Origin: a virus
Direction: 5' to 3' (one strand)
DNA length: 10,294 nt
UHGV virus genome: UHGV-1838671
In this document: positions 5,218-5,370 of the stretch, piece after piece
How the letters are laid out: every line of letters begins with the position of its first letter
Numbering within the stretch: the first letter of the stretch is position 1
Program-made: the position numbers and the translations under genes
Notes under the pieces: model-generated
Told to the model about the DNA's origin: nothing
Seen by the model: only the letters and a program-made list of their open reading frames with translations
Database searches by the model: none

Positions 5218-5370
5218 TCAGCCCTCCCATATCTCGTTATCGTTGGCCACATCGCGAGCTTCTTTGCTGACGAAAGCCCACTTAATGCCTTCCTGTAAGG
5301 TGCGGAACTTCCAGCTCATGAATCCGCATGCAGTAACGCAGTACCAACCGTTGATGATTTTCCACTGCAT
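5218..5370 (-). CDS. Small ORF (50 aa) missing from the ORF track; first gene of the leftward operon; possible CIII-like protein
   Basis: Hand-translated from the reverse strand: MQWKIINGWYCVTACGFMSWKFRTLQEGIKWAFVSKEARDVANDNEIWEG. ATG at 5370 with GAGGT Shine-Dalgarno 8 nt upstream; TGA stop at 5220-5218 sits 2 nt before the next gene's ATG. Weak resemblance to lambda CIII (MQYAIAGWPVAGC...RKLRDGWKRL) from memory. Confidence 0.4.
   Translation of the reverse strand: MQWKIINGWYCVTACGFMSWKFRTLQEGIKWAFVSKEARDVANDNEIWEG

Follow-up and report, generated by a model that had tools for sequence, protein, structure and literature searches.

In phages phiV10 and epsilon15, a gene of 50 codons (gp39 and gp37, respectively) lies between the terminator and operators of the repressor gene and a gene of the epsilon15 gp36 family. 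Both are annotated, and literature searches on epsilon15 gp37, the accessions, the peptide sequence, SPC32H and phiV10 retrieved no functional study. According to the abstract of an experimental paper on the near-identical phage ZX5 (PMC9782041), a repressor and an anti-repressor drive the switch in this phage group; that paper tested only the repressor, the anti-repressor and the integrase. Here, we analyze a member of this small gene family in the UHGV virus genome UHGV-1838671, a stretch of 10,294 nt hereafter called the window. The gene lies at positions 5218–5370 on the minus strand. The window covers early genes of a prophage of Uetakevirus type, within the phiV10/epsilon15 group, and was matched by megablast and tblastn to phiV10, TL-2011b, ZX5, the O157 typing phages and relatives. 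The original prediction, made from the letters of the window, had described this open reading frame (ORF) as the unlisted first gene of a leftward operon, with weak features of lambda CIII. The account we consider probable is that it is a real protein-coding gene, the first of a repressor-controlled early-left operon, belonging to the orphan family PHROG 898 rather than to the CIII family; the mechanism proposed below is more tentative.

Coding capacity and conservation of the small gene

The ORF runs on the minus strand from an ATG at 5370–5368 to a TGA at 5220–5218, and its 50 codons translate as MQWKIINGWYCVTACGFMSWKFRTLQEGIKWAFVSKEARDVANDNEIWEG. A Shine–Dalgarno element, GAGGT, lies at 5383–5379, 8 nt before the ATG, and the stop codon is separated by 2 bases (TA) from the next ATG, at 5215. 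Both signals are thus placed as had been described. With 120 ORFs of 30 amino acids (aa) or more in the window, ORF length alone is no evidence for a gene, and conservation is the deciding point.

The product matches the PHROG 898 profile with an E value of 1.9e-38, residues 1–50 aligning to positions 1–50 of 50. It is 100% identical to phiV10 PhiV10p39 (YP_512294.1) and 79% identical to epsilon15 gp37 (NP_848245.1), both of which are annotated coding sequences. By tblastn, identity is 100% in phiV10, TL-2011b, ZX5 and others, and 70–85% in uetakeviruses of Salmonella, Enterobacter and Klebsiella. Among 5426 complete E. coli genomes, 559 carry the region, and the RefSeq records listed call the product a hypothetical protein. 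The gene is already known, then, as an annotated hypothetical protein of PHROG 898. As a sequence feature it is ordinary, being annotated in phiV10, in epsilon15 and in the RefSeq E. coli genomes checked.

We compared the gene across 16 related loci of phage, genomic and metagenomic origin. All 16 have an open frame that begins with ATG and spans 48–51 aa. A Shine–Dalgarno element of the form GAGG(T/G) is likewise present at the equivalent place in 16 of 16, and reads GAGGT in all except L015. Within codons 2–25, the variable sites number 5, 3 and 17 at the first, second and third codon positions, respectively. Over the same codons, in phages of Escherichia, Salmonella, Enterobacter and Klebsiella, the ratio of non-synonymous to synonymous divergence (pN/pS) is 0.02–0.25, at pS values of 0.29–0.76. 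These comparisons indicate that the protein sequence is under strong purifying selection, above all in residues 1–38. The original prediction had been staked in part on the reading frame being conserved in related prophages, and this is what we find. Together with the homologues already annotated, the frame conservation argues that the ORF is a genuine gene, left out of the earlier ORF list only through a length cutoff.

Two other explanations of the conservation were considered and rejected. Synonymous sites are free to vary, so the conservation does not stem from an RNA or DNA element, and an Rfam scan of the window found no family. An antisense gene was also rejected as the conserved unit. 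One antisense frame, which has wobble positions in common with the small gene, is open in many loci; it ranges from 7 to 123 aa, never starts with ATG and is broken in L009. In the record of Enterobacter phage Tyrion (NC_031077; L004, 1405–1617), an opposite-strand ORF, BI095_gp39, is annotated, and the conserved 49-aa gene is not. That record is likely a misannotation.

The wider family is small. A search of 1.84 billion cluster representatives yielded 19 at E ≤ 1e-3, and a search of 5.8 billion proteins yielded 63 clusters, of which a few entries are ∼90 aa long. All taxon-labelled members come from Enterobacterales, in the genera Escherichia, Salmonella, Klebsiella, Enterobacter, Citrobacter, Raoultella, Kluyvera, Scandinavium, Hafnia, Serratia and Erwinia. 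Among close members, residues 1–25 are nearly invariant across genera, and the tail beyond residue 38 exists in at least two unrelated versions. Divergent members (36–57% identity) retain M1, G8, T13, W31 and F33 and, for the most part, G16 and A38. Both cysteines are lost in these divergent members, which removes the idea of a metal site formed by C11 and C15.

The location of the gene is also conserved. In each of the 15 loci for which flanking DNA was available, it heads the leftward operon, even where the downstream genes differ, and it directly follows the repressor gene in 14 of them. In the divergent relative L017, two extra genes intervene, with an operator still abutting; these genes (4211–4477 of that locus) encode a DNA polymerase III theta-subunit homologue (PF06440) and a protein of 60 aa. 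The recombination module is swapped in several loci. In 11 of 13 loci, the small gene is followed by a gp36-family gene, either immediately or after no more than 17 nt; in L009 and L013 the gp36-family gene lies further downstream, beyond inserted DNA. No gp36 homologue was found in L015, where the contig ends ∼650 nt downstream, or in L017, and a different coiled-coil gene follows. Given the inserts in the one pair of loci and the lack of a gp36 homologue in the other, an obligate partnership with the gp36 family is unsupported.

Transcription signals and comparison with lambda

On the minus strand, the small gene is preceded, in order, by an intrinsic terminator (5503–5484), an operator (5451–5467) and a predicted promoter with a second operator (5389–5405). 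The terminator, which has an 8-bp stem with 6 GC pairs and a T-run, is that of the repressor gene and divides the repressor transcript from the operon of the leftward promoter (PL); the corresponding element is annotated as a terminator in phiV10. The predicted PL-like sigma-70 promoter (5404–5432, minus strand) consists of TTGACA (5432–5427) and AATCAT (5409–5404) separated by 17 nt, a 10 of 12 match to consensus. One operator palindrome, ATTACC-N5-GGTAAT, is a perfect match to the motif, corresponds to inverted repeat I3 and lies just upstream of the –35 hexamer. The other, GTTACC-N5-GGTAAT, overlaps the –10 hexamer and the predicted transcription start. In an alignment of six phages, the –35 hexamer and the downstream operator are invariant. 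Judging from the hexamer coordinates, the leader between promoter and ATG measures only ∼30 nt. No intrinsic terminator was detected on the minus strand from 5400 to 1443.

A motif search for the operator-like palindrome ATTACC-N5-GGTAAT returned seven matches in the window, versus 0.28 expected (135–151, 5389–5405, 5451–5467, 6163–6179, 6548–6564, 8494–8510 and 8556–8572). Repressor-binding sites are annotated in the epsilon15 record at places equivalent to the window operators. The 50-aa gene lies directly downstream of the PL-like promoter and its operators, in accord with its earlier designation as first in the leftward operon, and these signals indicate that the operon is repressor-controlled and of the early-left type, with a predicted promoter. 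Because that promoter is bracketed by two repressor operators, the gene should by its position be switched off in the lysogen and expressed among the earliest genes upon infection or induction.

Operator copies also occur beyond PL and PR/PRM. One pair brackets a promoter-like site at 8488–8515, upstream of a DUF1064/resolvase-like gene (8575–8919), and a lone copy lies upstream of the integrase gene. These copies suggest that the repressor controls promoters in addition to the two at the immunity region. In epsilon15, PAT1 and Klebsiella phage BUCT711 (L002 3410–3500, L005 and L007; columns 150–236 of alignment A4), ∼75 nt of extra sequence lies between the promoter and the small gene. This stretch carries a short GC hairpin (ACCACC...GTGG, then TTTC) and a further operator abutting the ribosome-binding site; neither the window nor Tyrion or BUCT554 has it. 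The stretch could act as an attenuator or add a layer of repression.

By map position, the small gene corresponds to lambda N, each being the first gene after PL and its operators. In other respects the two differ. The window protein is near-neutral (charge at pH 7 of about –0.5), is only 50 aa long and lacks an arginine-rich motif, and the ∼30-nt leader is too short to include a nut site. These differences make an N-like role unlikely, as does the lack of any detected intrinsic terminator on the minus strand between 5400 and 1443. On this point our analysis agrees with the original prediction, which had seen no N-like antiterminator at this position.

The comparison with lambda CIII gave a different outcome. 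An N-terminal resemblance and a central R.L.EG.K segment had been put forward as an echo of CIII, to be checked by alignment to CIII family proteins. We assembled six CIII sequences, the lambda record and five homologues from P22-like, mEp213 and Yersinia phages. BLASTP of the ORF product versus lambda CIII produced no alignment at E ≤ 100. The Pfam family Lambda_CIII (PF02061) gave no match at E ≤ 10 for the product or three of its relatives, whereas the lambda CIII control scored 1.5e-30. When the product was aligned to the six CIII sequences by Smith–Waterman, the observed score was reached by a fraction of 0.24–0.50 of shuffles, and by 0.03 for one homologue, a value uncorrected for multiple comparisons. 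With profile–profile comparison by hhalign, the probability against an alignment of the six was 0.08% in global mode and 0.6% in local mode. The residues that had been pointed out are present, but the resemblance is no better than chance, and they vary within both families: CIII homologues share the conserved core ESLLERITRKLRxGWKRL but differ from one another at Q2, W8 and C13, and most gp37-family members have A in place of G28 and vary at K30. Membership of the CIII family is therefore rejected by all four approaches, one of them with a positive control, and from its sequence we conclude that the 50-aa protein is not a CIII homologue.

The genetic settings of the two proteins are alike in part. 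Each peptide measures ∼50 aa, and its gene belongs to a leftward early operon that is under repressor control and lies close to recombination genes. However, cIII is distal to N in lambda, whereas the window gene is the first in its operon. In lambda, APC_JM3.2, ST160 and mEp213, the annotation places a kil-type gene immediately after cIII; in the Yersinia phage the gene after cIII is unnamed, and one further CIII-bearing record is unannotated. The window gene, by contrast, has neither an adjacent kil nor a recognizable CII, and no match to the CII or Kil families was found among the window proteins. The proteins differ in predicted structure as well. CIII activity is carried by a central amphipathic helix, whereas the window protein is predicted to comprise a beta-sheet and a helix, the latter with a low hydrophobic moment, 0.07 over residues 24–41.

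Predicted fold and candidate functions

AlphaFold2, supplied with a diverse alignment (A3), placed strands at residues 2–6, 9–14 and 18–22 and a helix at residues 25–49, with five concordant models and a predicted local distance difference test (pLDDT) score of 75.6. A three-stranded beta-sheet followed by a helix is thus predicted with moderate confidence. The sequence [N/D/E]-G at residues 7–8, kept in divergent members, fits a tight hairpin turn between the first two strands. No specific fold match was found for the predicted structure. Some E. coli variants carry in-frame duplications, of WYCVTACGF in P0001 and of QE in P0005; the former would disrupt the predicted second and third strands.

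The protein contains 2 Arg and 4 Lys. Its highest 19-residue Kyte–Doolittle mean is 0.57, which, together with an acidic residue or Asn followed by Gly at the predicted turn, excludes a transmembrane peptide. Scans of the protein with Pfam, NCBIfam and PADLOC, of its relatives with Pfam, and a profile search of PDB sequences returned only fragments at chance level: a segment of mucolipin-2 (E = 0.28), an 11-residue match to AcrIIC5, KWAFVKKEARK (E = 1.1), and DUF2985 (E = 0.0016–0.04, below its cutoff). The product appears, from these features, to be a cytoplasmic protein with no catalytic or metal-binding signature.

As a tentative model, we suggest that this small immediate-early protein acts stoichiometrically, binding or modulating a macromolecule that is conserved throughout Enterobacterales. 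The target would be a host protein or a core early protein of the phage. Binding would occur through the nearly invariant aromatic beta-sheet and the WAF face of the helix, and the variable tail, acidic or basic, would be dispensable or partner-specific. We infer a conserved protein partner because the aromatic-rich N-terminal sheet is nearly invariant across hosts and repressor specificities (41–100% identity), and because the charge is neutral and the basic residues are not conserved. Two points weigh against this model. One is that confidence in the predicted fold is no more than moderate and that the fold changes with the alignment supplied: with a shallower alignment, AlphaFold2 returned a single long helix of low confidence (pLDDT 58.8). 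The other is that DNA-binding domains of the AP2 and integrase arm types share the beta3-alpha arrangement.

The latter point raises the possibility of a small early regulator that acts on nucleic acid. It would be a beta3-alpha mini-domain of the AP2 or integrase arm type, standing alone and binding phage DNA or RNA as the lytic programme begins. The P4-type integrase encoded in the window has, in its arm-type DNA-binding domain, the sequence DGLYVAVLTSGTVSFRY, which the hairpin NGWYCVTACGFMSWKF resembles, and domains of the PF13356 (DUF4102)/AP2-like class share with the window protein both the predicted sheet-plus-helix arrangement and the local motif G-[LW]-Y-x-V-x(2,3)-G-x-[VM]-S-[FW]-[KR]-[FY]. 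Two family members reached z values of 5.2 and 3.9 against the integrase arm domain, but most scored at chance. Against a profile of 117 arm domains, a comparison chosen post hoc, only 17 columns aligned locally, with an hhalign probability of 5.8% (P = 0.0065), and the global alignment gave nothing. Pfam Arm-DNA-bind_3 (PF13356) itself gave no match. The integrase domain, moreover, is basic and has an extra strand before its helix, whereas the window protein is neutral with an acidic tail, and the basic residues of its strands (K4, K21 and R23) vary in divergent members. The arm-domain relationship amounts to no more than a suggestive hairpin, and we regard a nucleic-acid-binding role, the leading alternative to the binder model, as unlikely. 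More broadly, the gp37 family could be an unrecognized kind of immediate-early factor, core to the uetakevirus lysis–lysogeny programme, that serves either as a DNA- or RNA-binding beta3-alpha mini-domain (possibly derived from an integrase arm-type hairpin) or as a disabler of a conserved host factor upon PL derepression, in the place held in lambdoid phages by N, CIII or Kil. We consider this quite unlikely.

A special case of the binder model is a Kil-like or other toxic host-takeover peptide, such as an inhibitor of cell division. In its size and its early-left place upstream of recombination genes, the small gene resembles lambda kil, which lies between cIII and gam; but neither Pfam, NCBIfam nor PHROG matched it to the Kil, DicB or Icd families, phrog_898 being the only hit, and such a function seems very unlikely. 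A CIII-like peptide, which would bind or compete at the host FtsH protease and so stabilize a lysogeny regulator, seems highly improbable. What speaks for it is a length of 50 aa (versus 54 for CIII) in a PL-type operon, a C-terminal half predicted to be helical, and the superficial echo of lambda CIII in MQ.-I..GW and R.L.[ED]G.K. Against these stand the failed searches and shuffle-level alignments described above, the variation of the echoed residues in both families, a predicted fold that begins with a beta-sheet and ends in a scarcely amphipathic helix, and a rightward operon in which no CII homologue was recognized, in a phage group whose switch, according to the abstract cited above (PMC9782041), operates by repressor and anti-repressor. 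It is just as improbable that the ORF yields no functional protein, whether as a chance ORF or as a leader ORF that merely loads ribosomes for the next gene. The ORF is very short, its stop codon lies 2 nt before the next start or overlaps it, and the Tyrion record annotates the opposite strand; yet the low pN/pS against high synonymous divergence, the near-invariance of residues 1–25 across genera, the retention of the frame in every locus even ahead of a different downstream gene, and the lack of conservation of the opposite-strand ORF all point to a protein that is selected as such.

A conserved binding partner is the interpretation that we favor, if tentatively. The gene encodes a genus-core, strongly constrained 50-aa protein, predicted to be the first made from a PL-like promoter, and the prophage group that carries it is found in about one-tenth of complete E. 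coli genomes. The identity of the partner would fill a gap in how epsilon15-type repressor/anti-repressor podoviruses start their lytic programme.

Surrounding prophage genes

The gene that follows the small gene (4916–5215, minus strand) encodes a 99-aa protein of the epsilon15 gp36 family (PHROG 856; phrog_856 match, E = 4.9e-55). Further along the minus strand lie genes for a YqaJ-type exonuclease (4020–4919), RecT (2988–4010), an AlpA-type excisionase (2690–2938), a 38-aa membrane protein (2577–2693), a PerC-like activator (2281–2580) and a DNA methyltransferase (1638–2300). The P4-type integrase gene (193–1443) is on the plus strand. On the other side of the small gene, the prophage repressor (5524–6108, minus strand) is of the phiV10 gp40/epsilon15 gp38 type and has two helix-turn-helix domains, seen as two stretches matching Pfam HTH_3. 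It is 100% identical to phiV10 gp40, and a structure of the SPC32H repressor, 5D50, is cited in the epsilon15 record. Past the repressor, the rightward genes encode, in turn, a Cro-like protein, a protein of 67 aa, a DnaT/O-like initiator (6860–7675) and a P-like helicase loader.

Compared with phiV10 (L001) and epsilon15 (L002), the window is a mosaic. The repressor, the 50-aa protein and the Cro-like protein are 100% identical to those of phiV10, whereas the exonuclease and RecT (2988–4919) are of epsilon15 type, 90–93% identical to epsilon15. In place of these separate exonuclease and RecT proteins, phiV10 has what is annotated as a RecE-RecT fusion, a type that gave no tblastn hit. The attP core of phiV10, epsilon15 and ZX5 (ATTGAGTGGGAATGATT), as reported in PMC9782041, is absent from the window even when 2 mismatches are allowed.

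Repeats and hairpins were seen elsewhere in the window. The linker of the DnaT/O-like initiator (7150–7260) contains tandem peptide repeats, GNEPEN and a repeated PKNGMLND, and two identical terminator-like matches on the opposite strand (7253–7234 and 7229–7210) are copies of this initiator repeat. A strong terminator-like hairpin lies at 47–70 on the plus strand, upstream of the integrase gene.
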